Assembly (NCBI GenBank): GCA_963828345.1
Contig: CAWHEZ010000019.1
Location: 61,568 to 125,567, forward strand
Reading direction: 5' to 3'
DNA length: 64,000 nt
Source: an uncultured delta proteobacterium
Lineage (GTDB): Bacteria; Desulfobacterota; Desulfobacteria; Desulfobacterales; SpSt-501
Of this stretch, positions 29,263 to 52,975 are shown in pieces. Position 1 is the first letter of the stretch; each line of letters opens with the position of its first letter. The notes below the pieces were generated by a model, which was not told the origin of the DNA, did no database searches, and worked only from the letters and a program-made list of their open reading frames with translations. A program made the position numbers and the translations under genes.

Positions 29263-29291
29263 AAACTGGTACATAAACCGGGGGCAGGTCA

Positions 29292-30386: not shown

Positions 30387-30516
30387 GAGCCGCCTCCGGA
30401 AAAACGTCGGTTTACCTATCCGAATCCACACGTTAGCGTTTCGGTAGATTCTCCATCGTTATCCATGCAATATACGCCCGCTAAGGTCTCAGGGCGTATG
30501 TGCCGATAACGCAGGC

Positions 30517-33028: not shown

Positions 33029-33910
33029 CTACCCGGAGTCGGAGGACAGCCGCTTAATCGCTTCCCATATCAAATCTACCAGATAGAGATTGGAGCAGTC
33101 CTGCCTTGCCATGAGCCCCATCTCCCTGGTGAGGGGAGGGGTTCCGAAGGGTACGCAATGGAGCTTTGCGAATTTCTGTTTGGGCAGGTACGAGTCGGGA
33201 ACGATGCCGACTCCGACATCGTGTTCCACCATGAGCAGAATGCTGTCGTATGAGTCGAATTCCATGGCGGGCCCGGCTTCAATCCCGCGGCGCTTCATCT
33301 CGCGATCGATCATGGTTTCATCCAACAGCCGAGGCTTGTGGCGTAGGTAAGGGCCCCGCATCAACAGCTCCTCGTCCGTTTTGCCCCGGAAGGCGCGGGA
33401 GGCGATCACATAGAACCTTTCCTGGCGGTAAGGCCGCCACAGCAGTTCCTCGGGGAGGCGGGTGGGCCCGACACCGAAGCTTGCATCGATTTTGCGGCTG
33501 ACGACCTCCAGCGCCAGATGCTTGGTCACGCCGCTGGCAGAGATCAAGCGGATCGTCAAATCGGGATGTTGTGCCTTCAAGACGATAAAGGCCTTCGCGA
33601 CAATGCCCGTCAGGGCGCTGCGCACGTGTCCGATGACGAGCTCCCCCCCGAATTCCGTCTTACGGTTTCGCTCCTTGTATTTGTTCCATTGCTTCAGGAT
33701 TTGCCTTGATACCTCGACCAGCTCCTCCCCCGCCTTGGTCAGGGTTACCGGGCGCCGGGAGCGGTCTATCAATTGCGCCCCCGCATCCTTTTCCAGGTCC
33801 TTGATGTGCTGGCTGACGGCTGCCTGCGTCAGGTGAACGGCTGCAGAGGCGGCGGTCACACTGCCGAGTTCGGCAACGAAAATAAGGGATTTCAGCTTGT
33901 CGATATTCAT
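33029..33910 (-). CDS. LysR-family transcriptional regulator, divergent from the catabolic operon
   Basis: N-terminal HTH LKSLIFVAELGSVTAASAAVHLTQAAVSQHIKDLE plus a LysR substrate-binding domain. Confidence 0.9.
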   Translation of the reverse strand: MNIDKLKSLIFVAELGSVTAASAAVHLTQAAVSQHIKDLEKDAGAQLIDRSRRPVTLTKAGEELVEVSRQILKQWNKYKERNRKTEFGGELVIGHVRSALTGIVAKAFIVLKAQHPDLTIRLISASGVTKHLALEVVSRKIDASFGVGPTRLPEELLWRPYRQERFYVIASRAFRGKTDEELLMRGPYLRHKPRLLDETMIDREMKRRGIEAGPAMEFDSYDSILLMVEHDVGVGIVPDSYLPKQKFAKLHCVPFGTPPLTREMGLMARQDCSNLYLVDLIWEAIKRLSSDSG

Positions 33911-33946
33911 GACAGCCTCGTGTGTCCATCAGATGCCAAGGGCAAG

Positions 33947-33967
33947 CTTATAAGAAATCGTTATAAT
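33947..33967. promoter_or_regulatory. candidate LysR-type (T-N11-A) operator in the divergent intergenic region
   Basis: CTTATAAgaaatcgTTATAAT contains ATAA-N7-TTAT dyad symmetry, 37 bp upstream of the lysR start and ~135 bp upstream of the lyase start. Confidence 0.4.
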
Positions 33968-34101
33968 TTCAATAAGAATTTTCAGGTTGCCTTTTGATTG
34001 GCATGGTGCCTAAATGGCTCCCGAGCCCAGGCGCAGATTGGCTTCGGGCGACTTTGGATTGGCATGGGTCTCCACCAGAACCTTTAAAAAGTGGGAAACA
34101 G

Positions 34102-35475
34102 ATGACCGTAACTCTCATCGACAGCGTGGTTTTTGGTGATTCCGTCGGGACTGCCGACATGCGGCAGGTCTTTTCAGAGACTGCCACCTACCAGCGATGG
34201 CTGGATGTGGAGGTGGCGCTGGCCAAGGCCCAGGCCGCCCTTGGGATGATCCCCAGGGAAGCGGCCGAGGTCATCTCCTCCAGGGCCGATGCCACACTGA
34301 TCGACCTCGAGGCGGTCAAAGCGCACGGCAAGCGCACCGGGCACAGCCTTTTGGGTGTGCTGGCGGAATTCCGGCGCGTCATCGCCCATGACCACGGGCG
34401 CTATGTCCATTTCGGGGCAACGACCCAGGACATCATCGATACCGGTCTGATGCTGATGATCAAAGACGGCTACCGCTGGGCTGAGAACCGCCTCACCGAG
34501 GTCATGCGCCTTGTTGCGGACCTGGCCGACACGCACGCGGGCACCGTAATGGTCGGACGGACCCACGGGGGGCACGCTTTGCCGATAACCTTCGGGTTCA
34601 AGGCCGCCATTTGGCTATCCGAGCTTTCCAGGCAGCTCGAGCGCTGGGAGCAGGCCCGCGAGCGGATTCTCGTCGGCAACATCACCGGCGCGGTGGGCAC
34701 CTTTGCCGCGTGGGGGGATCAAGGCGTTGAGGTTCAGAGGCGGACACTCGAGTTGCTGGGGCTGGGCGTGCCGGAAACCGTATGGCACAGCTCACGGGAC
34801 CGGGTGGCCGAGGCCTTGAGCCTGTGTGCGCTCCTGGCCGGCACCGGTGCGCGCATCGGCCGGGAGATCTACAACCTGAGCAGGACGGAGACCGGCGAAC
34901 TCATGGAGCCCTCCGCCGGCAAGATCGGCTCCAGCACCATGCCCCACAAGCGCAACCCGATCCACAGCGAATGGATCATGGTCCTGGAGCGCAAGATCAG
35001 GAGCAACGCATCGATAGCCCTGGAAGTCATGAGCCAGGAAAACGAAAGGGATGCATCGCGCTGGAAGAACGAGTGGATGGCCGCCCCCGAAAGCTTTGTC
35101 TATCTCTCGGGGCTTTTGAATCACATGCAGGTCCTCTTGAAAGGCTTGACCGTCGACCGGGAGCGGATGCTCCAGAACACGAACATGCTCAGGGGGATGC
35201 TGCTCTCCGAGCAGGTCATGTTCCTCCTGGAGAAGCATTTCCCGCTGCCGGATGCCCACCAGAAGGTCTACCTGGCATCGGTGCGGGCAGTCGAGAGGGG
35301 CACTTACCTCGTTGATGAGCTGATGACCGATCCGGAAGTTGCGGGCAAGTGCCAGGCAGCCGAAATCGAGCAGGTCCTGGACCCCGCCGGATATCTGGGG
35401 CAAGCCACGGCGGTTGCTCGCGCCGTTAAGGAGCGCGTGGACCGCCAGCTGGCCGCATTCGCAGCCAAGGAGTGA
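34102..35475 (+). CDS. aspartase/fumarase-superfamily lyase (adenylosuccinate lyase / 3-carboxymuconate cycloisomerase-like)
   Basis: Signature GSSTMPHKRNP. TQDIIDTG, HGGHALPITFG. Start chosen at ATG 34102 (MTVTLIDSVVFGD). Confidence 0.85.
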   Translation: MTVTLIDSVVFGDSVGTADMRQVFSETATYQRWLDVEVALAKAQAALGMIPREAAEVISSRADATLIDLEAVKAHGKRTGHSLLGVLAEFRRVIAHDHGRYVHFGATTQDIIDTGLMLMIKDGYRWAENRLTEVMRLVADLADTHAGTVMVGRTHGGHALPITFGFKAAIWLSELSRQLERWEQARERILVGNITGAVGTFAAWGDQGVEVQRRTLELLGLGVPETVWHSSRDRVAEALSLCALLAGTGARIGREIYNLSRTETGELMEPSAGKIGSSTMPHKRNPIHSEWIMVLERKIRSNASIALEVMSQENERDASRWKNEWMAAPESFVYLSGLLNHMQVLLKGLTVDRERMLQNTNMLRGMLLSEQVMFLLEKHFPLPDAHQKVYLASVRAVERGTYLVDELMTDPEVAGKCQAAEIEQVLDPAGYLGQATAVARAVKERVDRQLAAFAAKE

Positions 35476-35491
35476 TCGGGCTCTACGCGCC

Positions 35492-36858
35492 ATGACCTTA
35501 TCCGAGCAGTATGCCGCTTTCGTCGCCGGATTGAACTGGGCCCGGATTCCCATCGAGGTCAAGCAGACCAGCCTCGAGCTTTTTGCCGACTGGTTCGCCA
35601 ATGCGGTCGCCGGGTTTGACTCGCCCTTGACCCGGGCGCTGGTCTGCCTTTCGCCAGGATACGATAGCCCCGCGGGGGCCTTGCGGGCAGGGGATCTCAA
35701 AGCAGCCGAGCCCCTTTCATCCGCCCTGATCAACGCGAGCGCCGCGCACGCACTCGAATACGACGACTCTTACCGTGCAGGCCTCTACCACCCGGGTGCT
35801 CCGATCATTGCCGCGGCCTTCTCGGCGGCCTGCCGAGAGCAAACCGCGGGGTCCGTGCTGCTTGCCGCCATGGTTGCGGGCTACGAGGTAACGCTGCGCC
35901 TGGCCACGGCCGTCAACCCATCGCATTACAAGCTCTGGCACACAACCGGTACGGTCGGCTCCTTTGGGGCGGCGGTCGCCGCCGCACACATCCTGAGGCT
36001 TCCACCGCAGCAGATCACTGCGGCCCTGGGGCTGGCCGGGACTCAGGCGGCCGGGCTTTGGGAGGTCCTCCCCGATGCCCCGCAAGCCAAGAACCTGCAC
36101 CCCGCAAAAGCGGCCTACGGGGGGCTTCTTTCCGCCCTGCTGGCCGGTAACGGCATCCAGGGTCCTGCAACCATATTCGAGGGTGCCCGGGGTTTTTTTG
36201 CTGCTACGGTGCCTGAGCCGGTCGATAGCACCCAATGCACCCGGGGCTTGGGAGCGCAGTGGTTGACCCTCGACACCACCTTCAAGGCCTACCCGGTTTG
36301 CGGGCACGCCATGACCGCAATCGAGGCGAGCCTGAAACTCCATGGCCGCTTTGATCCAGAGGAGATCGAAGCGGTCGAGGTGCGCGCCCATCCTGTCTCG
36401 CTGCAGGTGGCCGGCCAGGGGTTTCCGACCAATGACAGCCAGGCGAAGTTTTCCATTCCATACTGTGTCGCCGTGGCGCTGCTGAAGGGGCGGGTGGGGC
36501 AGGAGGAGTTCTCGCGGGATCTCATCGGGAGCAGCGCCGATCGAGTCCATTCTGAAAAAGATCCGTTTGATCCCGGACGACGGTTTGACCGCCACTCCCG
36601 GCAGGCGCCCGGCGCGGGTGAGCATTACGCTCTCAGACGGAAGAAGTGTCTCGGCGATGGCCGAAGTGCGCAAGGGGGATCCCGAAATGCCCATGACCGC
36701 TGAGGAGAAACGCTCCAAAGTGATCGCCCTGATCGGTCAGGCGCTGGCGCATCAGGGACGTCGGCGGCCTGAGCGAACGGCTCTCCGGGCTTGCCGATGC
36801 ATCGAACGTTCTGGCATGGGCCGAAGGGCTCCGCGAGGTTCTTGAACCCAACCGATAA
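35492..36858 (+). CDS. MmgE/PrpD-family protein; needs two frame changes (~36540, ~36750)
   Basis: AAHALEYDDSYRAGLYHPGAPIIAA, WHTTGTVGSFGAA, KAYPVCGHA. The tail continues as PIESILKKIRLIPDDGLTA...VSITLSDGRS...GDPEMPMT and then DVGGLSERLSGLADASNVLAWAEGLREVLEPNR* in other frames. Confidence 0.75.
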
Positions 36859-36875
36859 ATTGAAGCGAGGGCAAT

Positions 36876-37166
36876 ATGCGCAGGGACGCAATCGTGATCA
36901 AAACGCAGGACAATGTGGCAACCGCCATTCGGGACATCGAGGAAGGCAAAACGGCCACGATCGGGGTGGAGGATGATTCCCTGGCGGTGCGGGTCGCCCA
37001 GGCGATCCCCTTCGGCCACAAGCTCGCCCTGCGGCGTATTCAAATGGGCGAAGACGTTCTTAAATATGGCACCGTAATCGGCCGGGCGACCAAGGACATA
37101 CAGGCCGGAGAGCATGTCCACGTTCACAATGTCGAAAGCACGCGCGGCCGTGGCGACTTGGCTTGA
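36876..37166 (+). CDS. UxaA/GarD-family dehydratase, N-terminal SAF-domain subunit
   Basis: DNVATAIRDIEEGKTA...IPFGHKLALRRIQMGEDVLKYGTVIGRATKDIQAGEHVHVHN. Confidence 0.8.
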   Translation: MRRDAIVIKTQDNVATAIRDIEEGKTATIGVEDDSLAVRVAQAIPFGHKLALRRIQMGEDVLKYGTVIGRATKDIQAGEHVHVHNVESTRGRGDLA

Positions 37167-37193
37167 ATTCAAATCGATGGAAGCGAGAACACC

Positions 37194-38353
37194 ATGAACT
37201 TCAGGGGATATCGAAGAGCGGATGGCCGTGTGGGCACGCGCAACTACGTGGGAGTGCTTTCCACAGTGGTCTGTGCCAACGAAGTGGCACGCAATATTGC
37301 CGGGCAAGTCAAGGGGGCGGTTGCCTTCAGCCACCAGCAGGGGTGCTGTCAAACCCCGCCCGACCTCGACCGGGTCACCGAGGCCCTGATCGGTCTTGGT
37401 CGCAGCCCCAATCTGGCAGCCGTTCTCCTGGTGAGCCTGGGGTGCGAGGGCACCGATGTGGCGCGGGTGAAAAGGCCATCGAGGCCAGTGGCAAGCCGGT
37501 GCAGCTCGTGACCATTCAAGAGGATGGCGGGGCGGCCAACACCACGGCCAAGGGGGTGCTCGCGGCGCAGCAGATGGCGGTGGCCGCCTCGCGCCTCCAG
37601 CGTGAGGAGTGCCCTGCGAGCGATTTGATCCTCGGGCTCAAATGCGGCAGTTCGGACACGACCAGCGGTCTGGCCGCCAACCCGGCCGTCGGGGTAGCGG
37701 TGGAGCGACTGGTGGCGGCGGGCGGGACCGCCATCCTCGGCGAGGTGACCGAGGTGATCGGTGCCGAGCACCTGCTCGCCAGGCAGTGCAAGGATGAAAC
37801 TGTGGCACGAGAGCTTCTGAAGCTCGTGGACCGCATGGAGCAACGGGTCAAGGCGATGGGGGTCGACATGCGCGGGGGGCAACCGACTCCCGGCAACATC
37901 AAGGGGGGGCTCACCACCATCGAGGAGAAATCGTTGGGGGCGATTGCCAAGATCGGCGGAGCCGTTCTCCAGGCGGTTTACGAATACGCGCAGGCCCCCC
38001 AGGTGAAGGGCCTGGTGTTCATGGACTCGCCCGGCCGGGAGCCTGAGCTGTTGACTGGAATGGCCGCCGCGGGGGCAAACGTGATCGTGTTCACCACCGG
38101 CCGCGGCGCGCCCCAGGGGTTTCCGTTTGTCCCGGTCGTCAAGGTGACCGGCAACGAGCTCACGTGGACCAAGCTGCAGGACCACATGGACCTGACGGTT
38201 CACGGGGTCATGGATGGGGAGGAGTCCCTGAAACAGGCCGGCAACCGAGTTTACGAGAAGCTGCTCGAAACGGCATCGGGGGTCGAGACGAAGGCCGAGG
38301 TGTCCGGCTACGTGCAGGCCATGGACATCTACGTAACCGGTCCGGTAATATGA
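37194..38353 (+). CDS. UxaA/GarD-family dehydratase, catalytic subunit; one frame change near 37465
   Basis: FRGYRRADGRVGTRNYVGVLSTVVCAN...SLGCEG, then in the next frame GEKAIEASGKPVQLVTIQEDGG...LKCGSSDTTSG...GGLTTIEEKSLGA...VFTTGRGAPQG. Confidence 0.75.
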
Positions 38354-38398
38354 TGCCTGAATAGTCAACGTTAAGGAACCGCAAAGGAGGATCTGCCA

Positions 38399-39364
38399 AT
38401 GTGGGAACGGAAGCTTGCCCGATTGTCCGCCCTTTTACTTCTTGTTGTTTTGTCCGGCAGTCTCGCGGGGACAGGCGCGCTTGCCGCGGACAAACAGTTC
38501 CCCAGCCGCTTTCTGGAAGTCGTGGTTCCGTTTGCCCCGGGCGGTGCGGTGGACAACAGCATCCGAATCGTCGCAACCGAGGCTGAAAAGATCCTGGGGC
38601 AGAAGATCACCATCCTGAACAAGCCGGCCGGCGGCTCGGTCGAGGGCCAGCGGTATGTCGCAAATGCCAAGCCGGACGGCTACACACTGCTCGCCATGAC
38701 TTCCTCCATCGTCAGCAACATCCTGACCAAGGAGGTCGGCTTCACGCTCGAGTCCTTCGATCCGCTGATCATGTACTGCTTCGACCCGTTCGTGTTCGTC
38801 GTCAGTGCCGAGCTGCCTTACAAAACCCTGGCCGAGGTGGTCGCCGCGAGTAAAGTGAAGCCCCTGGCGGCGTCGACCCCCGGCAAGGCCAATTCCAAGC
38901 ACATTGCCGGAATGCTGATCGAGGAAAAGACCGGGGCGAAGTTTAACTACGTCCACACCAAGGGGGCGAGCGAAGGGGTGCCCATGATCGCGGGCGGCCA
39001 CGTCCAGGTCGGCTGCTGGGCCTGGGCCGAGGTGCGGCCCCTGGTCGAGCAGGGGAAGCTCCGCCCCATCGCTGTCATGGCCGAGCAGCGGGACTCGGAT
39101 TTCCCTGACGTGCCGACCTTCAAGGAGCAGGGTGTCGAGATCTACTACGGCGCCTGGCGTGGTATTGCCGCGCCCAAGGGGCTTGCGCCGGCTACACGCG
39201 ACATCCTGATCAAAGCCTTGACTCAGGCGGTTAACTCCGCCGAGGTCAAGGATAAATTCGACAAGGCCGGCTTCCCGGTGGTCTACAAGGATGCAAAGTC
39301 CTTCAGCACCTACATCGAAGAGGATTACGCGAGCCTCAAAAAGACGCTGGACCAGCTCAAATAG
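38399..39364 (+). CDS. tctC: tripartite tricarboxylate transporter substrate-binding protein (Bug/TctC family)
   Basis: Signal peptide. FPSRFLEVVVPFAPGGAVD, KPAGGSVEGQ, WRGIAAPKGLAP. Confidence 0.85.
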   Translation: MWERKLARLSALLLLVVLSGSLAGTGALAADKQFPSRFLEVVVPFAPGGAVDNSIRIVATEAEKILGQKITILNKPAGGSVEGQRYVANAKPDGYTLLAMTSSIVSNILTKEVGFTLESFDPLIMYCFDPFVFVVSAELPYKTLAEVVAASKVKPLAASTPGKANSKHIAGMLIEEKTGAKFNYVHTKGASEGVPMIAGGHVQVGCWAWAEVRPLVEQGKLRPIAVMAEQRDSDFPDVPTFKEQGVEIYYGAWRGIAAPKGLAPATRDILIKALTQAVNSAEVKDKFDKAGFPVVYKDAKSFSTYIEEDYASLKKTLDQLK

Positions 39365-39412
39365 GAAGATTTCTCTCAATATCTCCAAAACCGGCGCGAG
39401 GGCTAACGCTGC

Positions 39413-39889
39413 ATGAAGCCTGCGAATGCTATCCCCCTGGGGCAGTTGCTGGTTGGTCTTTTCTGGGTTGGACTTGCTGCCCTCGTCTTCTACGGCATAC
39501 GAAGCCTCGCGCCGGCCGAGCCCGGTGGGCTTGGCCCGGCCACGTTCCCTAAAATCCTCGCGGTCAGCCTTTCGGCCCTGGTGGCCCTCTACTGGTTCCA
39601 GTCTTGGAAAGCCGCCCCCATCCCGTTTCTAAAAAAAGACAGCGGCGGAAGTCTCCTTAAAACAGCCTGCCTAAGCGGCCTTGCGCTATCCTCCGCCTTG
39701 CTGTGGGAGCCGGTGGGGGCACTGCCCGTTCTGGTTGCCCTCAGCATCATCGAGCTAAGGTGGATCGAGGGCTTCAGCTGGGTGCGCGTTCTGGGCGTGG
39801 GGCTAACGCTTTCAATCGGCATGTGGGTTGTCTTCACCCAGGCGCTGGGGGTCAACTTGCCGCTCGGCATGCTGATGTGGTTTTTCTAA
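39413..39889 (+). CDS. tctB: tripartite tricarboxylate transporter TctB-family small membrane protein
   Basis: Four predicted TM segments, located between the tctC and tctA genes. Confidence 0.7.
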   Translation: MKPANAIPLGQLLVGLFWVGLAALVFYGIRSLAPAEPGGLGPATFPKILAVSLSALVALYWFQSWKAAPIPFLKKDSGGSLLKTACLSGLALSSALLWEPVGALPVLVALSIIELRWIEGFSWVRVLGVGLTLSIGMWVVFTQALGVNLPLGMLMWFF

Positions 39890-39932
39890 CGACTGTTGCC
39901 GGCCTCACGCTTCGCGGGAATGGACTTCATCC

Positions 39933-41432: not shown

Positions 41433-41469
41433 CGCCGGCTAAAGTCAAACTCGCCTGGACGGAGGAGAG

Positions 41470-42720: not shown

Positions 42721-42752
42721 ACGATGAACGCGCAGCGGAAGGGGGAGGGCCA

Positions 42753-43805
42753 ATGCCTGAAAACGTCGACATCAACGCCGCCGATCTGAAGCAATTCTCT
42801 GCCGCCGTTCTCAGGCAAGTGGGGGTGGCTGCAGCCGAGGCGGCGATCGTGGCCGATTGCATGGTGTTCGCGCATCTGCGCGGGTTTGACACCCACGGGT
42901 TTCCATGCCTCGCCGGCTATGCCGAATGCCTGGAGCAGGGGCGGATCAACCCACACCCCAAGATCGCAATTGAGCGGCCTGCGCCCTGGACGGTCCGGCT
43001 GGACGCTGACAACGGATTGGGCCATGTTGCAGCCGCCAGAGCAATGGAGCTTGCCCTGGAGACCGCCGAAAGATCGGGGGTGGGTGCGGCCGTTGTGCGT
43101 CGCAGCAACCACTTCGGAGCCGCCTGCTGCTACTCCATGATGGCGCTGCCTATGGACTGCATCGGGATTGTGAGCTCCAACGCGTCCGCGGCGGCGGCGC
43201 CATTCGGGGCAGTGGAGCCGTTTTTAGGGACCAATCCGCTTTCGGTCGCGGTGCCCACCCTGAACCTGCCGCCCTTCGTGATCGACATGGCCACCAGCGA
43301 GGGGGCCCGCAAAAAGGTTCGTAAGCTGTTATCGGAAGGCTTGCCCCTGCCTGCCGGCTGGGCTCTCGACAGGGAGGGCAACCCCACAACCGACCCAAAG
43401 ACGGCTCTCGAGGGGGTGATGCTGCCCTTCGGCGGAATGAAGGGCTCGGCCGTCACCCTGTTGCTGGATATCCTGTCGGGGGTGCTTTCCGGGGCTGAAT
43501 TCGGCGGGCGGGTTCTGAGCGTTCTCACCAATCAGGAGAAAGAATCCGGCAACGGCAACTTCATGCTCGTGTTCAAGGCCGCCTCATTTTTGCCGGCCGA
43601 GGAGTTCAAGGCACGCATGGACGAGGAGCTTTCGCGACTGCGATCGTTACGACCGGCGAAAGGGGTATCGGAGGTCATCTACCCGGGGTACAAGGAACAC
43701 GTTCTCGAAGGGGTGCGGCGCGAAAAGGGGATCCCGTTCAGCACGGCATTGATGCAGGAAGCCCGATCTCTGTCGAAGCGCTACGGTGTTGCGTTTCCTG
43801 CGTAA
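42753..43805 (+). CDS. Ldh_2 family (malate/L-lactate dehydrogenase type 2) oxidoreductase
   Basis: RGFDTHGF, RRSNHFGAA, GTNPLSVAVP, ATSEGARKKV, PFGGMKGSAVTLLLDILSG. Confidence 0.85.
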   Translation: MPENVDINAADLKQFSAAVLRQVGVAAAEAAIVADCMVFAHLRGFDTHGFPCLAGYAECLEQGRINPHPKIAIERPAPWTVRLDADNGLGHVAAARAMELALETAERSGVGAAVVRRSNHFGAACCYSMMALPMDCIGIVSSNASAAAAPFGAVEPFLGTNPLSVAVPTLNLPPFVIDMATSEGARKKVRKLLSEGLPLPAGWALDREGNPTTDPKTALEGVMLPFGGMKGSAVTLLLDILSGVLSGAEFGGRVLSVLTNQEKESGNGNFMLVFKAASFLPAEEFKARMDEELSRLRSLRPAKGVSEVIYPGYKEHVLEGVRREKGIPFSTALMQEARSLSKRYGVAFPA

Positions 43806-43851
43806 GGGGGGTAGGGCGATGGTATACAACTTAGCCAAAGGGGGTGACGCT

Positions 43852-45450
43852 ATGCGTAGATCAAGACACAAACTGCTGTGGGCCGGGCTGCTGGTTGCCG
43901 CCATGACGCTGACAGGCTTGGCGCATGCTCAGGAGTTGGCGAAAAACCAGAAGCTGAGAGTGGCCACTCCCATCAGGGACATCCAATCCCTCGACCCCGC
44001 CCGGGCTACCCTGACCGGAGAAAAGGACATCGTGGCGGGGATATTCAATGGGCTGCTGCGCATGCCCTTCGGCAAGGTGGACATCGAAGCGATTGAAGGC
44101 GACCTGGCTGAAAAATGGGATATTAGCCCCGATGGCCTGGTCTGGAGCTTTACCCTGCGCAAAGGGGTGAAGTGGCACAAGGCCTACGGCGAGGTGAGCT
44201 CCGATGATGTCAAATTCACCTTCGAGCGGATCAAGGACAAGGCCACGGCATCGCCCTTCGCCAAGGGGTACGAGAACCTGGACAAGGTGGAGGTCATCGA
44301 TGGCCAGCACTTGAAATTAACCCTCAAGAAGCCCGACCCCTTCTTTGCGCTCAGCCTCATTCCCTATCATGGCGGTCAGATCGTCAGCAAAAAAGCGGTC
44401 GAGAAATTGGGCAAGGAGTTCGCTTTCAGCCCGGTGGGTTCAGGTCGCTTCATTTTCGATTCCTACGATAAAGGGCAGGGGGTATATCTCAAGAGAAACC
44501 CCGATTATTTCCGCGGTGCCCCGATCCTCGAGTCCCTGGAGTACGTGTTCATGCCGGACCCCAGCAGCCGCCTTCTGGCGATTGAAAAAGGCGAAGTCGA
44601 CGTGGGCGCAGGCATGCGCAAGAAGGAGTGGGTCGAGCAGGCGATCAAGTCCGGCATCAAGATGGCCCCGCCCAACCCGCCCCAGCAGCAGATATTGATC
44701 ATGAACATGACCAAAAAGCCCCTGGACGACATCCGGGTCCGCCGGGCGATTGCCTACGCGCTGGACCGGGACACCTTCGTCGATCTGCTGGGGCCCGTTC
44801 TGGGGGGGCCGCAGATCAGCCCCGTGCCGCCGGGCTACTTTGGCCATCTCCAGATCGGGATGGAGCAGTACGAATACGCCCCCGAACGCGCCAAGAAGCT
44901 CCTGGCCGAGGCCGGATATCCACAGGGCATATCCTTAGGAGAGCAATTCTGCAGCGAATCGGACGAATACATCCGGCCCTTCAACGTGATTCAGGAGCAG
45001 CTTCGGCAGGTCGGTATCAATTTTGACATAAAAGTGGTGGACCACCCCACCTACCACAAGCTCATCCGGCAGGACAAGAATGCGCTGGTGATCTACGGAG
45101 CGGTGCGTCTGCCGGTCGCGGAGACGATTTTGACCGAATTCTATGCAAAATCGTCGATTGTCGGCACTCCTACGGCGGTCACCAACTTCTCGCACTACGG
45201 CGAGGTGATGCCCGGAATAGACCAGTACCTCGAAAAGGCCGGGAGCACCACCAATCTGGAGTTGAAAAAATATTATTACGGATTGGCCCAGCTGCAGATT
45301 CTCGAGGATTTGCCTGCTTACCCGTTGTCGCTGGACCGCGCGGCACTTTGCTATCAGAAGTGGGTGGATTTCGGGTATGACATGAAAACCTATGAAACCC
45401 TTTACTACACGATTGAAGTCAGTGAAAAAACAAGAATTTTAAAGCACTGA
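43852..45450 (+). CDS. ABC transporter substrate-binding protein, family 5 (peptide/opine/nickel type)
   Basis: Signal peptide LLWAGLLVAAMTLTGLAHA. GLLRMPFG...LAEKWDISPDGLVWSFTLRKGVKWH. Confidence 0.85.
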   Translation: MRRSRHKLLWAGLLVAAMTLTGLAHAQELAKNQKLRVATPIRDIQSLDPARATLTGEKDIVAGIFNGLLRMPFGKVDIEAIEGDLAEKWDISPDGLVWSFTLRKGVKWHKAYGEVSSDDVKFTFERIKDKATASPFAKGYENLDKVEVIDGQHLKLTLKKPDPFFALSLIPYHGGQIVSKKAVEKLGKEFAFSPVGSGRFIFDSYDKGQGVYLKRNPDYFRGAPILESLEYVFMPDPSSRLLAIEKGEVDVGAGMRKKEWVEQAIKSGIKMAPPNPPQQQILIMNMTKKPLDDIRVRRAIAYALDRDTFVDLLGPVLGGPQISPVPPGYFGHLQIGMEQYEYAPERAKKLLAEAGYPQGISLGEQFCSESDEYIRPFNVIQEQLRQVGINFDIKVVDHPTYHKLIRQDKNALVIYGAVRLPVAETILTEFYAKSSIVGTPTAVTNFSHYGEVMPGIDQYLEKAGSTTNLELKKYYYGLAQLQILEDLPAYPLSLDRAALCYQKWVDFGYDMKTYETLYYTIEVSEKTRILKH

Positions 45451-45595
45451 TCACCTGATCGAGGCGGCACTCCGCGCGACCGGGGGGGGCCGCCACTGGC
45501 TTCCCGCCTCGAATGGCCACGCCCCCTTCATCCGACGGGAGCGTGACGCTGCCGATTTTCCAAACGATGCCGACCGTTTTCTGGGAGGACTATCC

Positions 45596-46537
45596 TTGTT
45601 CGCCTACGCCGTTAGAAGAATAGTCTTCACTGTCCCCATGCTGTTCTTCGTTTTCACAGTGGTGTTCTTTGTCATGCGCCTGGCCGGCGGCGACCCGACC
45701 TACGCCATCTTAGGCGACCGGGCAAGCGCTGAGGCAGTTGCTCAGCTGCGCGTAAAACTCGGATTAAACGACCCCGTGCTTATCCAGTACGTCAAGGCGC
45801 TGAACAACCTTTTGCATGGCGATCTGGGCGAGTCCTTGATCAACGAGAGGCCCATCGCCCCCCAGATCATGAAGGTGCTCCCCTACACGATCGAGTTGAC
45901 GGTCGCCGCCATTATCATTGGCATTGCGCTCGGTATCCCCGCCGGCATTTTCTCGGCCCTTCGGCGCAACCAGATGACCGATTACTTCCTAAGAGTTTTG
46001 AGCCTCATCGGCCTGTCGGCGCCCTCCTTTTACCTGGGCATTCTGTTGCTGCTGCTCTTTTCAGTCCAGTTGGACTGGTTTCCGATCATTGGCTTCACCC
46101 GAAGCGGGGATATCTGGGACCGGCTCTATTATGTCTTTTTACCCGCGCTGAGCCTGGGCTTGAACAAGGCGGCCTTTGTTTGCCGGGTGACCCGGTCCAG
46201 CATGCTGGAGCGCCTGAACGCTGATTACGTGCGCACCGCGCGCGCCAAGGGGCTGCCGGAATTCAAGGTGATTTTCAAACACGCCCTCAAGGACTGCATG
46301 ATCCCCATCGTCACGGTCAGCGGCGTCTATGTGGGGGTGCTCATGGGGGGAGCCATTCTTACGGAAACCATATTCAGCCGGCCGGGGCTCGGCAAATTCC
46401 TGGTGGAGGCCATCGCGCAGCGCGACTACAACGCGATTCAGTCCGGTCTGGTTTTTTACGGGATCGTCATCGTGCTGGTCAACCTGGTCGTGGACCTCTT
46501 GTATGGTCTGATCGATCCCCGCGTAAAATACGAATAG
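45596..46537 (+). CDS. ABC transporter permease (DppB/OppB-like)
   Basis: MRLAGGDPT..., DYVRTARAKGL EAA-loop motif. Confidence 0.85.
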   Translation: MFAYAVRRIVFTVPMLFFVFTVVFFVMRLAGGDPTYAILGDRASAEAVAQLRVKLGLNDPVLIQYVKALNNLLHGDLGESLINERPIAPQIMKVLPYTIELTVAAIIIGIALGIPAGIFSALRRNQMTDYFLRVLSLIGLSAPSFYLGILLLLLFSVQLDWFPIIGFTRSGDIWDRLYYVFLPALSLGLNKAAFVCRVTRSSMLERLNADYVRTARAKGLPEFKVIFKHALKDCMIPIVTVSGVYVGVLMGGAILTETIFSRPGLGKFLVEAIAQRDYNAIQSGLVFYGIVIVLVNLVVDLLYGLIDPRVKYE

Positions 46538-46556
46538 GGGGGCAGGGGCGAGCGAG

Positions 46557-47399
46557 ATGCTCTTCTTTGATAAAAAAGCGCTGTCTGCATTCCGGCAGAA
46601 CAAAACGGCCCTAATCGGCCTGGTGCTTCTGTCGCTGATCCTGTTGTGCGCCCTTTTTGCCAACCTGATCGCCCCATACGATATCCGGGTGCAGAGCCTG
46701 ACCGAGCGCCACCAGGCCCCGAGCCTCGGCCACTGGATGGGCACAGACGATTACGGTCGGGACGTGTTCTCGCGCATACTGGTCGGCTCGCGGGTTTCTC
46801 TTCTGGTCGGGATATGCTCGATTTCGGCTGCAATGCTCCTGGGGGTGCTGCTCGGGGTTTACTCGGGGTTAAAGGGCGGGTGGATTGATCAGGTGCTGAC
46901 CAAGGTGATCGACGCGCTCATGACCTTCCCCTCGCTCATCCTGGGGATCCTGGTGGTGAGCGCCCTCGGGCCGGGTGTCGAGAATGCCACCCTTGCCATA
47001 GCCATTGCGTTCATCCCCCGGTTTGCGCGCGTGGCGCGTGGGCCGACGCTGGTTCTCAAGGAGAATGAATTCATCATGGCCGCGCGGGCCTGCGGGGCCA
47101 CGGATGCGCGGATCATCTTTCGCCACGTCATCCCCAACCTGGTCGGCGAGATCGTCGTCATGGCAAGCCTCTGGATGTCGACGGCCATCATCATCGAATC
47201 CAGCCTGAGCTTTCTCGGCCTGGGCGTGCAGCCCCCGGCGCCGTCCTGGGGGATGATGATCAAATCGGGGGTCGACAACATCCGGCTGGCTCCGTGGCTG
47301 GCCGTGTTCCCGGGTCTGGCCATCTCCCTTGCGGTCCTGGCCTTCAACCTACTGGGGGACGGCCTGCGGGACCTGCTCGACCCCAAGATGCTCAAATAG
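46557..47399 (+). CDS. ABC transporter permease (DppC/OppC-like)
   Basis: HWMGTDDYGRDVFSR, EFIMAARACGA motif. Confidence 0.85.
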   Translation: MLFFDKKALSAFRQNKTALIGLVLLSLILLCALFANLIAPYDIRVQSLTERHQAPSLGHWMGTDDYGRDVFSRILVGSRVSLLVGICSISAAMLLGVLLGVYSGLKGGWIDQVLTKVIDALMTFPSLILGILVVSALGPGVENATLAIAIAFIPRFARVARGPTLVLKENEFIMAARACGATDARIIFRHVIPNLVGEIVVMASLWMSTAIIIESSLSFLGLGVQPPAPSWGMMIKSGVDNIRLAPWLAVFPGLAISLAVLAFNLLGDGLRDLLDPKMLK

Positions 47400-47409
47400 G
47401 CATCGCGGA

Positions 47410-48402
47410 ATGAACGCGATTCTAAAAGTTAAAGAATTAAGCGTGGTCTTCCATACCTTCGAGGGCAGGCTCCAGGCCCTGGACCGGGTCGGCTTTGACG
47501 TGTTCCCGGGAGAAACCCTGGGGATCGTCGGCGAATCGGGCTGCGGCAAGAGCGTTACCTCACTTTCCATCCTGCGCTTGATCCCAACCCCGCCCGGGGA
47601 GATCACGGGCGGGAGCATCGACTACCGGGGAACCGATATCCTTGCGCTTTCGCCCGGGGAGATGCGCTCCGTGCGGGGGCAGAAAATTTCCATGATCTTC
47701 CAGGAGCCCATGACCTCACTAAGCCCGGTTTTCACGGTGGGGGAGCAGATCTCGGAGGTGTACCGTCAGCATAAGAAAATCACGCGACGCGAGGCCATGG
47801 AGCGAAGCATCGGGATGCTCAAGAAGGTAAACATCCCGGATGCGCCTAAGGCCAGCCGCAGCTACCCGCACGAGATGAGCGGCGGAATGCGCCAGAGGGT
47901 CATGATCGCCATGGCGCTGGCCTGCAAGCCGGAGTTGCTGATAGCGGACGAGCCCACGACCGCACTGGATGTGACCATCCAGGCCCAGGTGATCGACCTG
48001 ATCAAAGGGCTGCAAAGCGAAATGGGGATGTCGGTGATTTTTATCACCCACGACCTGGGTGTTGTGGCCAACACGGCCAGGAGAGTGGTGGTCATGTACA
48101 TGGGCCGCATCGTCGAAGAGGCTGCTGCCGCCGAGATCTTCGAAGCCCCCCTGCACCCCTACACCCGGGGTCTGATGCACTCGATCCCCCGGATCGGGGA
48201 GAAGTTAAGGGGTGCCAAGCAGCCGCTGAAAGAGATCAAGGGGGTCGTACCCTCACTCTTCAAGCTCCCGCAGGGATGTACGTTTTCAGACCGGTGCGGC
48301 CAGGTGATGGAGCTTTGCCGCCGCCAGGAGCCGGAGCTGGTCCGGGTCCAACCGGATCACCGCTGCCGGTGCTGGCTGCACACCCCGGACAACCGCTCAT
48401 GA
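47410..48402 (+). CDS. ABC transporter ATP-binding protein (DppD/OppD-like)
   Basis: Walker A GESGCGKS, signature SGGMRQR, Walker [14 protein letters not shown]-terminal oligopeptide-type Cys tail. Confidence 0.9.
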
Positions 48403-49379
48403 CCGAGCCCATACTTCGCGTCGAAAACCTTCAAAAACGGTTCCCCATCAAGCGGGGAATATGGCGCAAGACCGTCGGCCAAGTTCACGCCGTAGATGGA
48501 ATCAGCTTCTCTCTCCAGCCTCAGGAGAGTCTGGGCCTGGTCGGGGAATCCGGCTGCGGGAAGAGCACCGCGGTGAAGACGCTCCTGCGGCTGATCGAAC
48601 CCTCGGGTGGGCATATTTTCTTCGACGGGCAGGACGTGACCCACCTCGGGCCGGCCGAGCTCAGGCGGCTGAGGCAGAATCTGCAGATCGTTTTCCAGGA
48701 CCCGTATTCCTCCCTGAACCCTCGCATTACGGTCGGGCAGTCGATTGCCGAGCCGTTGGATGTTTTCAAGGTCTGCGCTTCGGGGCGGGAGCGTCAGGAC
48801 CGGATAGCGGAATTGCTGCAGAAGGTCGGCCTCCAACCGGAATCCGCCAGGCGCTACCCCCACGAATTCAGCGGGGGCCAGCGCCAGCGGATCTGCATCG
48901 CGCGTGCGCTCGCCCTCAACCCGAAGGTCATCATCGGCGACGAGCCGGTGTCTGCCCTGGACGTTTCCATCCAGGCCCAGGTGATCAACCTGATGGAAAA
49001 AATCCAGACCGACCTGGGCCTATCGTATCTCATCATCTCGCATGACCTGTCCGTGATCGAGCACATGTGCGATCGCATCTGTGTGATGTACCTGGGGCGG
49101 ATCGTGGAGGCGGCCGACGACAGGGAGATCATCGGTCATCCGCTCCACCCCTACACGCAGGCGTTGATGTCGGCCGTTTACGAGCCTGATCCGGCCCGCC
49201 AGCGGAAACGAACCGTCCTGACTGGAGATGTTCCTTCCCCGATTTCTCCTCCGCTGGGATGTCATTTCCACCCGCGCTGCCCTATCGCCGAAAGGATCTG
49301 CACGGAGCAGCAACCGGAGTTGCTGGAGGTGCGACCGGCGCACCGGGTGGCCTGCCACAAGGTTAAATCGGGGATCTAG
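48399..49379 (+). CDS. ABC transporter ATP-binding protein (DppF/OppF-like)
   Basis: ATGA overlap with the previous gene. [27 protein letters not shown]. Confidence 0.9.
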
Positions 49380-49403
49380 ACCCGTGAACGAGAAGGAGGA
49401 GTG

Positions 49404-50606
49404 ATGTCGATAATCGCCAGCCATTTAAAGACGATCAATCCGTCTGCAGTCTCGGTCATGTCCGCCAAGGCTCTCGAGCTCGAGCGACAGGGCAGGGACA
49501 TCATCCGGTTGTCGGCCGGGGAACCGGACTTTCCAACCCCGGACCACATCAAGATGGCCTGCATAAAGGCACTTTGCGACAACAAAACCAAGTATCCGCC
49601 GGTCATCGGGTTGCCCGAGTTCCGGGAGGCCATCTGCATGAAGCTCAAGCGTGACAACGCGCTCGAATATTCTCCCGGCCAGACCATCGTCAGCTCGGGC
49701 TGCAAGCAGGTCATCTATAACGCCATGGCCGCCACTTTGGATCCCGGGGACGAAGTGATGATGGTGGCGCCCTACTGGATGAGTTACGTCGGCATCGTTC
49801 AACTCAGTCGGGGCAAGCCGATCTTCGTTCCCACCTGTCAGGAAAACGGTTACAGGCCGAGCGCGGAAGCCCTGGAACAATCGATCACTTCCAGAACCAA
49901 GTGGCTCTTTTTAAACAGCCCGGGCAACCCCTCGGGTGCGGTTTACAATGCTGCGGATCTCGAGGCTATCGCCGGTGTCCTGCGACGTCACCCCGAGGTC
50001 TGGGTTTTGAGCGATGATATTTACGAGTTTCTGGTCTATGGGGATGGCAAGTTTATCAGCCTTTTAAACATTGCCCCAGACCTGAAGGACCGGTTGCTGG
50101 TGGTCAATGGCCTATCGAAGGCGTACTGCATGCCGGGCTGGCGCCTGGGCTATGCGGCTGGACCGGAAGAGGTCATCAAGGCCATGTTCAAGATACAATC
50201 CCAGTCCACCAGCGGTGCGACCCATTTCTGCCAATGGGCCGGGGTGGTCGCACTGACCGGAGACCACTCGTTTATCCCCGTTCACAACCAGTCCTTCGAG
50301 CAAAGGCGGGATCTCGTGGTTTCCCTGGTCAACCGAATCCCGGGTTTGAGCTGCACCCCACCGAAGGGAGCTTTTTACTGTTACATTGGATGCGGTGATT
50401 TCATCGGCAAGAAAGCGCCAGGCGGCGCCGATATCTTGACCGACGAGGATCTGGTTGGCTACCTGTTGGATGAAGCCGGCGTTGCCGCTATACCCGGAGC
50501 TCCATTCGGCATGTCGCCCTACTTCCGGGTGTCATTCGCAACCGCTATGTCCAAAATCAAAAACGCCTTTGAACGCATTCAGACGGCTTTGAGCCGCCTG
50601 AATTGA
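49404..50606 (+). CDS. class I/II pyridoxal-phosphate-dependent aminotransferase (aspartate aminotransferase-like)
   Basis: GGAGG precedes ATG 49404. GEPDFPTP, NSPGNPSG, LSKAYCMPGWRLGY (PLP lysine motif). Confidence 0.85.
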   Translation: MSIIASHLKTINPSAVSVMSAKALELERQGRDIIRLSAGEPDFPTPDHIKMACIKALCDNKTKYPPVIGLPEFREAICMKLKRDNALEYSPGQTIVSSGCKQVIYNAMAATLDPGDEVMMVAPYWMSYVGIVQLSRGKPIFVPTCQENGYRPSAEALEQSITSRTKWLFLNSPGNPSGAVYNAADLEAIAGVLRRHPEVWVLSDDIYEFLVYGDGKFISLLNIAPDLKDRLLVVNGLSKAYCMPGWRLGYAAGPEEVIKAMFKIQSQSTSGATHFCQWAGVVALTGDHSFIPVHNQSFEQRRDLVVSLVNRIPGLSCTPPKGAFYCYIGCGDFIGKKAPGGADILTDEDLVGYLLDEAGVAAIPGAPFGMSPYFRVSFATAMSKIKNAFERIQTALSRLN

Positions 50607-52650: not shown

Positions 52651-52975
52651 CATCTGGTTGGTTCCTTTTTAGGCACCTTGGCAAACGATGATGCCGTGAT
52701 CATTATTCGTGCATGGGAAACCCTTACGCCTTAATCGTGATGTTGCTTTCTTACTGTGTTGTGTTCGCAGTTTGTGCCGTCACAGGTGCACGCGATCTGC
52801 GAAAGGCAAGGCAACTGAAGAGACTGCTCAAAAAAACACGCCCCACGAATGATGGACCCCGCGTGTAGCGGCGTGACAATCTTTTTAATCTTCATGTAAA
52901 AGACATCTTCACAGAATGTCGCATGACCATTCCGGGTCAGAAGGAACCGGGCCTCAAGAGAGGTTCGGTTTTTTG
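52651..52975 (+). repeat. ~325-bp repeat module, copy 2 (inverted relative to 1045..1373)
   Basis: See copy 1. Similarity starts at the istA break and ends at the terminator T-run. Confidence 0.85.
52713..52868 (+). CDS. 51-aa predicted membrane micro-protein, paralog of 1149..1310
   Basis: ATG 52713, TAG 52866-52868. MGNPYALIVMLLSYCVVFAVCAVTGARDLRKARQLKRLLKKTRPTNDGPRV. Confidence 0.6.
   Translation: MGNPYALIVMLLSYCVVFAVCAVTGARDLRKARQLKRLLKKTRPTNDGPRV

Follow-up and report, generated by a model that had tools for sequence, protein, structure and literature searches.

What kind of compound would call for a fumarase-type lyase, a putative epimerase, a split dehydratase, an oxidoreductase, an aminotransferase and two uptake systems, all beside a single LysR-family regulator? 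The question is raised by a gene island at positions 33029-50606 of a stretch of 64,000 nucleotides (the window) on contig CAWHEZ010000019.1 of an uncultured delta proteobacterium of the Desulfobacterales lineage SpSt-501 (assembly GCA_963828345.1). Our answer is tentative, and we hold it with more doubt than conviction: the island may be a LysR-controlled catabolic operon for a conjugate of a C4-dicarboxylate with a heteroatom-linked substituent at C2 of the succinate moiety, from which an epimerase and a lyase would free fumarate, while the acidic amino acid left over would be converted to oxaloacetate, with an oxo acid and then a dihydroxy acid resembling tartrate as intermediates. The substrate would most likely be an amino acid that bears an N-(1,2-dicarboxyethyl) group and a hydroxylated acidic arm, of the same kind as iminodisuccinate or the aminopolycarboxylates.

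The listing of open reading frames (ORFs) places 15 genes at 34102-50606, all on the plus strand, with the LysR gene divergent at 33029-33910. The intergenic gaps, taken from the ORF coordinates, are 16-48 bp, except for 145 bp before the first permease gene. Pfam and NCBIfam confirm the families (Lyase_1 + ADSL_C, MmgE_PrpD_N/C, SAF, GD_AH_C, TctC, TctB, TctA, Ldh_2, SBP_bac_5, two BPD_transp_1 permeases, two ABC_tran + oligo_HPY ATPases, and Aminotran_1_2), so that gene order and families in 34102-50606 are as described in a first-pass annotation of this DNA. In what follows, G000 is the window's own genome; G007, G018, G014, G004, G008 and G019 are relatives or congeners; and L-numbers denote loci or contigs. 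The genes of the island are:

33029-33910, minus strand: LysR-family regulator (HTH_1 and LysR_substrate in Pfam; 84% identity to the G007 orthologue)
34102-35475, plus strand: lyase of the adenylosuccinate lyase (ADSL) type, intact (Lyase_1 and ADSL_C)
35492-36858, plus strand: MmgE/PrpD-family protein, a probable 2-substituted-succinate epimerase, with two frame breaks (Pfam; tblastn against G007)
36876-37166, plus strand: SAF small subunit of a split UxaA/GarD-type dehydratase (SAF, 41 bits; 73% identity to G007)
37194-38353, plus strand: large subunit of the UxaA/GarD-type dehydratase, with one frame break (GD_AH_C, 297.5 bits)
38399-39364, 39413-39889 and 39933-41432, plus strand: TctC, TctB and TctA of a tripartite tricarboxylate-type transporter (TTT), an importer (Pfam)
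41470-42720, plus strand: LarA homologue of NCBIfam group 22 (NF052515), a probable 2-hydroxy-acid epimerase/racemase
42738-43805, plus strand: Ldh_2-family NAD(P)H oxidoreductase (Ldh_2, 366 bits), start uncertain, the listed ORF running from 42294
43786-49379, plus strand: family-5 (Dpp/Opp/Nik-type) ATP-binding cassette (ABC) importer of five genes (Pfam, NCBIfam), namely a binding protein (43786-45450), permeases (45596-46537 and 46557-47399) and ATPase ORFs (47329-48402 and 48276-49379), in which the matches to the family set in after about 30 and 42 codons
49401-50606, plus strand: class-I aminotransferase of the aspartate aminotransferase (AspAT) type (Aminotran_1_2, 252.5 bits)

The first gene of the series sets the theme. 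Matches to Lyase_1 (152 bits) and ADSL_C (43 bits), together with a Ser-loop signature, GSSTMPHKRNP, that agrees with the pattern GSSxMPxKxN, assign the lyase, on sequence criteria, to the adenylosuccinate-lyase branch of the aspartase/fumarase superfamily. Among the NCBIfam models it passes only the purB model TIGR00928, and that barely (333.4 bits against a cut-off of 326.2); it lies below the cut-offs of NF006500 (451.5/626), XcbD (430.3/600), PcaB (374.8/595), TIGR02426 (287/356), nitrosuccinate lyase (255/650) and NF006764 (88/446). Its best solved relatives are 3c8t, described as a ‘fumarate lyase’ (6e-95), PcaB (2e-79) and the trans-aconitate decarboxylase Tad1 (2e-72), with adenylosuccinate lyases (about 1e-60) and CreD as further ones. 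The earlier view that this lyase should be distinct from PcaB and PurB survives in part: the genome has its own housekeeping PurB, separate and on contig C25 (641 bits), which speaks against that role for the lyase of the island, but the lyase does fall in the ADSL/PcaB/XcbD group, just over TIGR00928.

Its neighbour, the PrpD-like protein, is closest among solved structures to a Bacillus subtilis homologue, 7bra (1.6e-34), followed by iminodisuccinate epimerase (1.7e-26) and cis-aconitate decarboxylases (1e-22), and it is far from 2-methylcitrate dehydratase PrpD as modelled in NCBIfam (best score 36.8 bits against a cut-off of 575). All known MmgE/PrpD-family proteins act on C2/C3-substituted succinate by (de)protonation at C2, and the two epimerases of the family add a catalytic tyrosine (PMC12290011, also the source of the residue list used here). 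When the intact G007 orthologue is aligned with iminodisuccinate epimerase, H85, D/E88, H99, Y145, H150, K198 and K266 are all matched; the position of Asp88 is occupied in that orthologue by Glu, as in methylsuccinate isomerase, and the sequence SHYKLWHTTG around Y145 and H150 can be read in the window's own frame. The cis-aconitate decarboxylase has Pro at the position of Y145 and no tyrosine. With all seven epimerase residues kept, tyrosine included, the iminodisuccinate-epimerase type suggested in the first-pass annotation is borne out, and an MmgE/PrpD activity of the epimerase/isomerase type is probable as a prediction.

Do these two genes, and those around them, belong together? In the congener G007, whose proteins carry the public label ‘Deltaproteobacteria bacterium’, a LysR gene is followed by aminotransferase, lyase, PrpD-like gene, SAF, UxaA, TctCBA, LarA homologue and Ldh_2, all intact; the family-5 ABC system is absent from this locus. 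A scan of metagenomes gave 16 contigs (L097-L111 and L115) with a lyase 61-87% identical to that of the window, a 1.3-kb fragment (L144) being excluded, and the genes on them were counted by tblastn with the cluster proteins. The enzyme core, consisting of LysR, AspAT-like aminotransferase, ADSL-like lyase, PrpD-like protein, split SAF/UxaA and Ldh_2, is syntenic in these 16 contigs, whose carriers are uncultured bacteria of wetland, sediment and bioreactor; the neighbourhood is conserved both in a congener and in these contigs. In all 13 contigs that extend past the lyase the PrpD-like gene lies directly 3′ of it (L098, L101 and L110 end at the lyase), as expected if the two form the functional pair that had been proposed. 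SAF-UxaA is present in 11 of the 11 contigs that reach beyond the PrpD-like gene. Ldh_2 is found in 11 of 16 (it is absent from L106, and four contigs are too short), as is the aminotransferase (three contigs are cut, and it is absent from L103 and L106, where LysR stands next to the lyase); in G007 and most contigs the aminotransferase lies directly upstream of the lyase. A LysR orthologue stands beside the core in 8/16. This arrangement is far from chance. Two near-duplicate contigs, L107 and L115, have another core order (LysR, TctC, SAF, UxaA, Ldh_2, TctA, aminotransferase, lyase, PrpD-like gene), and in L107 several genes are in pieces, which suggests an error-rich assembly.

In two of the contigs (L097 and L099) the cluster is followed by an extra, argininosuccinate-lyase-like gene. 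Among solved structures 6rx8 and 6g3d match it best (1.7e-32), by a small margin over the argininosuccinate lyase 1tj7 (1.1e-30); 6G3H and 6RX8 are structures of EDDS lyase (PMC6973171). The link to EDDS-type lyases made in the first-pass annotation is found here, by that narrow margin, in the extra lyase.

The transport genes behave differently from the enzymes. A TTT stands beside the core in 6/16 metagenome contigs as well as in G007 and the window; at the position seen in the window it occurs only there and in G007, to which TctC, TctB and TctA are 85%, 65% and 89% identical. Parts of a family-5 ABC system adjoin the aminotransferase in three of the 16 contigs (L101, L104 and L110), with orthologous ATPases or a permease (68-79% identical) upstream of it; the window's binding protein has GsiB as its best NCBIfam match (149 bits against a cut-off of 594). 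With so few contigs and none in the congener, we do not count this importer, included in the pathway by the first-pass annotation, as part of the conserved core. Alternative transporters are DcuC in L106 and an SBP_bac_3 ABC system in L105, and of the window, G007 and the 16 contigs three have a LarA-type gene: the window and G007, each with one of group 22, and L106. The transporters are variable, and TctCBA with the LarA homologue is a separable, added module. Each of the alternatives (TTT, DcuC, SBP_bac_3 ABC) suits dicarboxylic or acidic amino acids.

The presence of a TTT, taken with PcaB and Tad1 among the solved relatives of the lyase and cis-aconitate decarboxylases among those of the PrpD-like protein, invites the thought that the pathway deals with tricarboxylates. 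In that case the TTT would import an aconitate-, hydroxycitrate- or isocitrate-type compound on which lyase and PrpD-like protein act, while the UxaA enzyme would turn hydroxycitrate into oxalosuccinate and Ldh_2 would yield isocitrate. We consider this very unlikely. It leaves no role for the conserved AspAT-type aminotransferase beside the lyase, the PrpD-like protein has the epimerase tyrosine that the decarboxylase lacks, and the carriers that replace the TTT include an amino-acid-type ABC system and DcuC.

The variability of the island also raises the issue of whether it is one pathway at all. It could be a mosaic of modules, in which lyase, PrpD-like protein and aminotransferase would convert an N-succinyl or iminodisuccinate-like compound to fumarate and aspartate, the TTT, LarA homologue, SAF-UxaA and Ldh_2 would serve a hydroxy-dicarboxylate such as tartrate, and the ABC system a third compound; the modules would have come together either because all feed the oxaloacetate/fumarate pool or through repeated insertion into a mobile island. 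SAF-UxaA indeed travels alone, as a second copy on C25 and as copies without lyase in G018 and G014; a Sporomusa plasmid combines a TTT, a group-22 LarA and SAF-UxaA without lyase, PrpD-like gene or aminotransferase; both the ABC system and the block of TTT and LarA are variable insertions; and transposases flank the island. Still, SAF-UxaA accompanies the lyase/PrpD pair in every one of the 11 informative contigs, and Ldh_2 and the aminotransferase each do so in 11/16. This co-occurrence, across lyase identities of 61-87% and several gene orders, is difficult to account for unless the core is functionally linked; we take a mosaic to be an improbable account of the whole.

The cluster is rare in the genomes sampled. 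A lyase orthologue is present in one of 24 congeners (G007, 82% identical), in two of the 401 genomes of an order-level sample (G000 and G007; by genus 1/174) and in none of the 400 other genomes of a phylum-level sample, where three relatives reach 45-48%. The protein database holds many close lyase relatives from metagenomes, and the named ones are from Desulfobacula sp. (65%), Desulfospira joergensenii (62%) and Oleispirillum naphthae (58%). A scan of a genome collection with an alignment of the lyase gave identities of 34-47% among the matches listed (80 loci), with a PrpD-like gene in 3/80; no named genome with the full cluster was among these 80 loci.

What might the other core enzymes do with the product of a lyase and an epimerase? 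The four cysteines of the large dehydratase subunit align with those of GarD (6u7l), and it is these cysteines that are conserved across the UxaA/GarD superfamily except in SuyAB (PMC6336799). From these matches, the SAF protein and the large subunit would form a heteromeric UxaA/GarD-type dehydratase; having all four cysteines, it does not fit SuyAB as judged from the published description of the latter, and its matches in the ESM Atlas are only clusters named ‘UxaA family hydrolase’. A second, intact SAF-UxaA copy lies in the same genome at G000:C25:288584-290063 (locus L180, 9585-11067), its SAF 84% identical to that of the window and its large subunit, which also has a GD_AH_second domain, 88% identical to that of G007. 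This copy has island-like GC at third codon positions (GC3). Dpp-type ABC genes flank it, a gene for a Pyr_redox_2-rhodanese fusion comes after it, and an M20 peptidase and an amidohydrolase are encoded on the other strand. The copies in G018 and G014 are 87% identical; in the G018 operon the order is IclR, LarA group 22 (441 bits), Liv-type ABC system, IlvD, SAF and UxaA. On the Sporomusa termitida plasmid pSPTER the order is enolase-superfamily protein, TctCBA, LarA group 22 (532 bits, 42% identical to that of the window), SAF, UxaA (65% identical) and GntR. Split UxaA relatives at 49-50% identity are found in a fucose-type sugar-acid cluster (Bacillus sp. F19 plasmid) and beside a 2-keto-3-deoxygluconate permease (E. 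albertii plasmid). A sugar-acid pathway was considered for the island as well and set aside, as the core has no sugar dehydrogenase, lactonase or aldolase.

The Ldh_2 protein (75% identical to that of G007) has the L-sulfolactate dehydrogenase 2x06 (5e-68) and the malate dehydrogenase 1v9n (9e-63) as its best solved relatives. L-sulfolactate dehydrogenase is also its best NCBIfam model, at 257 bits against a cut-off of 500, and the malate and ureidoglycolate dehydrogenase models are likewise not reached (212/356 and 171/336). We see little reason to retain the DpkA-type imine reductase of the first-pass annotation, since 1wtj gives only a partial match at 6e-32. The assignment of the aminotransferase as aspartate-type stands: its best solved relative, over the full length, is 6f77, ‘Aspartate aminotransferase A’ (7e-137); in NCBIfam the protein scores below the equivalog cut-off of PRK06107 (485.7 bits against 617).

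These relationships make it worth considering that the substrate contains sulfur. It would then be a thioether or sulfonate (S-(2-succino)cysteine-like, mercaptosuccinate, sulfosuccinate, or cysteate/sulfolactate). Epimerase and lyase would cut a C-S bond to give fumarate; aminotransferase, Ldh_2 and UxaA would work as in the conversion of cysteate to sulfopyruvate, sulfolactate and pyruvate, with UxaA eliminating sulfite or thiol in place of water, and the LarA homologue would racemise the 2-hydroxy acid. Besides the affinity of Ldh_2 to L-sulfolactate dehydrogenase, both as family and as solved relative, the combination of aminotransferase, Ldh_2 and a heteromeric UxaA-type enzyme is the make-up of cysteate dissimilation, and SuyAB is a named heteromeric member of the superfamily (PMC6336799). 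XcbD, which adds cysteine to sulfoacrylate (PMC9457059), is the second-best NCBIfam model of the lyase (430 bits), and 2SL and YxeQ occur as a pair in S-(2-succino)cysteine clusters (PMC9706529), the PrpD-like protein being nearest to 7bra of B. subtilis. Distant lyase/PrpD pairs in L026 and L029 have rhodanese genes as neighbours, and the fusion gene 3′ of the C25 SAF-UxaA copy includes a rhodanese; an NMT1-type ABC system and cysK are found upstream of the module on the Sporomusa plasmid, and the SBP_bac_3 ABC system beside the core in L105 may be added to this list. Nonetheless we think a sulfur substrate unlikely. The large subunit of the window has all four cysteines that are not conserved in SuyAB (PMC6336799), to the extent that a comparison by description allows, and its relatives at 49-50% are sugar-acid dehydratases by their gene context. 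No sulfite exporter or sulfite dehydrogenase is present among 22 flanking ORFs scanned in seven contigs, and the core has no yxe-type acetyltransferase or deacetylase. As for the rhodanese gene next to the C25 copy, its GC3 differs (0.90 vs about 0.7), and it is not kept in G018 and G014.

Turning to the LarA homologue, it passes the NCBIfam model NPN_iso_grp_22 (NF052515) with 450.6 bits against a cut-off of 400, and falls below the Pfam threshold of Lar_N (21.3 vs 23.3 bits). R56, H88, H153, K166 and H182 are invariant in five group-22 sequences, and their spacing (32/65/13/16) is close to that of R75, H108, H174, K184 and H200 of LarA (33/66/10/16; residues named in PMC11770544), the mapping being by spacing only. 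No solved LarA turned up at E <= 0.01 when the solved structures were searched with phmmer, and the available text of PMC7583248 and PMC11770544 has no passage on ‘group 22’ or LarAH22 and no group-22 substrate. A member of the NPN-dependent isomerase family, acting as a 2-hydroxy-acid epimerase/racemase, is probable. The LarA-type gene of L106, beside DcuC, is malate-racemase-like (331 bits against a cut-off of 500). Linkage of group-22 LarA and SAF-UxaA recurs in G007, G018 and the Sporomusa plasmid; as a general partner of UxaA, group 22 was rejected, since in the phylum sample, where the family is over its cut-off in 70/401 genomes, SAF/UxaA lies within 1.5 kb of none of the 29 best-scoring group-22 loci.

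There are two other group-22 paralogues in G000, on C6 (L005) and C22 (L006), near TTT or tripartite ATP-independent periplasmic (TRAP) carriers and hydroxy-acid enzymes. At one of these loci we observe TctA, an apparently fused TctC-TctB frame, a Zn-ADH, a xylose-isomerase-like protein, a DHDPS-family protein and a D-2-hydroxyacid dehydrogenase, and at the other a TRAP transporter with a GntR regulator. At the latter locus the Pfam matches of DctP and DctM span only part of the ORF, which suggests further frame breaks. In the same genome, a high-GC3 cluster at G000:C8:21000-46000 (L181, L182) holds three TTT systems, an aminotransferase, an RraA-like aldolase and an aconitase-family protein, with tblastn matches to Ldh_2 (40%) and the PrpD-like protein (32%). 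Its families are in part those of the island, and it looks like a further region for the catabolism of carboxylates.

The cofactor of these proteins presents a small puzzle. G000 encodes LarB (299 bits) and LarE (319 bits), whereas a search with TIGR00299 and PF01969 detected no LarC, a protein that the nickel-pincer cofactor requires, in G000, G007 or G018. These are the three genomes that pair group-22 LarA with SAF-UxaA, and they are rich in LarA homologues (three group-22 genes in G000, seven in G007 and three in G018). LarC was found in G004, G008 and G019, which have two, four and one.

From the families, residues, synteny and modular make-up described so far, we infer a substrate, a set of steps and their order. 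Uptake would be by the TTT and/or the family-5 ABC system. The PrpD-like enzyme would epimerise the succinyl C2, so that all diastereomers could reach the lyase, and the ADSL-type lyase would eliminate fumarate and free an acidic amino acid (aspartate or 3-hydroxyaspartate). The AspAT-like enzyme would convert this amino acid to the 2-oxo acid, Ldh_2 would interconvert oxo acid and 2-hydroxy acid (oxaloacetate/malate or oxaloglycolate/tartrate), the LarA homologue would invert the 2-hydroxyl where needed, and the split SAF/UxaA enzyme would dehydrate a 2,3-dihydroxy acid to oxaloacetate. Every conserved enzyme is from a family of which the known members act on C4-dicarboxylates or close analogues; this, with two precedents for the pairing of a lyase and a PrpD-family protein, is what leads us to a pathway for a 2-substituted succinate. 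The lyase family releases fumarate from succinyl compounds, which supports such a pathway. The version with a hydroxyl group, from 3-hydroxyaspartate by oxaloglycolate and tartrate to oxaloacetate, would fit best, to judge by three features: a dehydratase with four cysteines, the sugar-acid enzymes related to it and, in L106, a malate-racemase-like LarA next to DcuC. In the first-pass annotation an N-substituted aspartate- or succinate-type compound had been proposed; the class, 2-substituted succinates of the N-succinyl type, seems a reasonable one for the substrate.

A number of observations weigh against this catabolic operon for a succinyl conjugate. Apart from the marginal purB match no enzyme is over an equivalog cut-off, and several hints, given above, point to sulfur chemistry. 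We know of no natural hydroxylated compound of the iminodisuccinate type. Both aminotransferase and Ldh_2 are missing from L106, and the aminotransferase from L103. The EDDS-lyase match of the extra lyase (1.7e-32) is barely better than its argininosuccinate-lyase match (1.1e-30). The absence of SAF/UxaA from the 29 best group-22 loci and the failure to find LarC in G000, G007 and G018 count on the same side, as does the fact that two genes are frame-broken in this assembly. Lastly, the contig has a GC content of 61.0% against 66.2% for the genome, so that the binning is not certain.

A related proposal sets the core more broadly. It may represent an undescribed natural pathway whose substrates would be adducts of fumarate, or aminopolycarboxylates (amino acids, succinated or N-succinyl-substituted, of the kind found in metallophores or among damage products). 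In it an enzyme like YxeQ or iminodisuccinate epimerase, which would render every diastereomer cleavable, and an ADSL-type lyase, which would take off fumarate, are followed by oxo acid, hydroxy acid and a UxaA-type beta-elimination, without deamination by a pyridoxal phosphate (PLP) lyase, and in which LarA group 22 sets the stereochemistry. This we regard as possible and rather doubtful. In our main reading the remaining acidic, beta-substituted amino acid would end in oxaloacetate or pyruvate. The first-pass annotation could attach no named pathway to this set of enzymes, and no described pathway matches it; a search of the literature for combinations of these families, with most subscription journals outside its reach, found no such cluster.

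Is the island functional in the genome in which it was found? The stop-to-stop frames, tblastn with the intact congener proteins and DNA alignments agree on three single-base indels in two genes. The PrpD-like gene (true span 35492-36858) has an extra base at about 36540 and another at about 36743, and the gene for the large UxaA subunit lacks one base at about 37474, beside an A-run; three breaks had been announced earlier, and all three exist, but the genes affected are two and not three. The three pieces of the PrpD-like protein are collinear, in three frames, and cover residues 1-451 of the 456-residue G007 protein, and the two pieces of the large subunit cover residues 1-386 of 386 at 85-88% identity. 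All pieces are open apart from the indels.

One might take the three breaks within 17.6 kb as the mark of a decaying remnant, with two enzymes truncated and the island inactive in this genome whatever happens elsewhere, and the foreign composition (10th percentile of GC), the flanking transposases and the lack of a detected LarC would agree with this. Contigs of four public runs (X1-X4) aligned to 35400-38400 argue otherwise. A contig of 1701 bases from run X3, about 97% identical (55 mismatches) and from a metagenome unrelated to that of the window, is without all three indels: relative to it the window has one base more at 36540 and at 36745, and lacks a C behind 37474. A contig of 279 bases from X1, with 2 mismatches, has one base fewer at 36743; those of X1, X2 and X4 do not span 36540 or 37474. 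Furthermore, elsewhere in the assembly there are 6 frame changes in 83.5 kb, at 5 of 79 loci from five gene families (TctA 2/19, TctC 1/20, permeases 2/15 and 0/13, aminotransferase 0/12; a looser count for TctA gives 4/21 loci), so that the island's three are not clearly above background, and rpoB and rpoC, which are free of frame changes, are compatible with that rate. As near-identical DNA elsewhere is intact, we read the breaks as assembly errors or very recent changes rather than as old decay. A dead island is accordingly a quite improbable reading.

The setting of the island is that of mobile DNA. Around it lie:

23171-23758: integrase fragment, left of the island
28384-29262, plus strand: IS3-type transposase, left flank (rve, rve_3, HTH_21)
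51797-52672, plus strand: fragment of a Mu-type transposase, right flank (Mu-transpos_C_2 and rve)

With 60.9% GC against 66.2% for the genome, the island falls in the 10th percentile of 857 five-kb windows; it is a low-GC, mobile island between transposases. Given its low GC, the contig as a whole, which is 167 kb long, may have been mis-binned, or may be a plasmid or an integrative element. The composition of the window is strongly mosaic (2-kb GC from 0.46 to 0.69), and elsewhere in it there are PIN, Fic and ParE-type genes and a radical-SAM/B12 protein at 15150-16643. At 29289-30431, on the minus strand, is a flavocytochrome-b2-like gene (cytochrome-b5 and FMN-dependent dehydrogenase), which looks truncated by insertion, since its FMN_dh match ends at profile position 258 of 350 right beside the IS3 transposase. 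A site scan found no excess of promoter-like sites (3 vs 4.9 expected) and 25 terminator-like sites against 17.5 +/- 4.6 expected, and no inverted repeat was found in the spacer between LysR and lyase.

Here one conserved operon brings together members of the ADSL-like lyase, MmgE/PrpD, split UxaA and nickel-pincer LarA families, four large groups in which functions are lacking for many proteins and may here be assignable together. If the substrate is a succinyl conjugate, the operon would offer a route by which aminopolycarboxylates of natural origin, or amino acids that have been succinated, are recycled in wetlands and anoxic sediments, and a source of stereoselective C-N or C-S lyases and epimerases, kinds of enzyme already used in biocatalysis. 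If the core is a pathway for fumarate adducts, it would provide the first functions for LarA group 22, for PrpD proteins of the YxeQ type and for this clade of lyases; the epimerase signature of the PrpD-like protein already suggests a role for the unexplained YxeQ-type proteins.

It is informative to examine the island in light of the systems that it most resembles. Cokesa and co-workers are said to have reported in 2004 that Agrobacterium tumefaciens BY6 degrades iminodisuccinate with an epimerase and a stereoselective C-N lyase, and 2hp0 and 2hp3 are structures of the epimerase. The likeness lies in the pairing of a PrpD-family epimerase with a fumarate-releasing lyase and in the seven epimerase residues kept in the protein of the island; aspartate is also a plausible product, which fits the adjacent AspAT-type enzyme. 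However, the identity to the epimerase is low (E 1.7e-26), the YxeQ-type protein of B. subtilis is closer (1.6e-34), and the known system deals with a synthetic chelator and is without a SAF/UxaA, Ldh_2 or LarA partner. Paracoccus pantotrophus dissimilates L-cysteate by way of an aminotransferase, sulfolactate dehydrogenase and the heteromeric sulfolactate sulfo-lyase SuyAB, and in Chromohalobacter sulfolactate is taken up by a TTT. Enzymes of all three families, the split UxaA-type one among them, are encoded in the island, although its large subunit has the four cysteines that SuyAB is said to lack, the flanking ORFs scanned showed no gene for the handling of sulfite, and Ldh_2 reaches 257 bits where 500 are called for.

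In the S-(2-succino)cysteine clusters a lyase-class-I enzyme stands next to the PrpD-family gene YxeQ, whose role is unassigned, and to an amino-acid-type ABC importer (PMC9706529). The resemblance is one of families and extends to the release of fumarate from a 2-substituted succinate, as predicted for the island; in place of the YxeL acetyltransferase and the YxeP deacetylase, the core has an aminotransferase, Ldh_2 and SAF/UxaA. With the LarA superfamily (PMC7583248, PMC11770544) the LarA homologue shares a score over the group-22 cut-off, the R/H/H/K/H spacing and a place beside hydroxy-acid transporters and a dehydratase, and it differs in the lack of a solved LarA at E <= 0.01, the sub-threshold Lar_N match and the LarC that was not found in three genomes. 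Likewise, the heteromeric sugar-acid dehydratases of the UxaA/GarD type, which belong to non-phosphorylative pathways (PMC6336799; Bacillus sp. F19 plasmid), have the split of SAF and large subunit and the four cysteines in common with the island at 49-50% identity, whereas the island is without a sugar dehydrogenase, a lactonase or FAH-family proteins as partners and has enzymes of the C4-dicarboxylate type in their stead. Taken together, the logic of an epimerase coupled to a fumarate-releasing lyase is a known one, and the partners that accompany it here are unprecedented.

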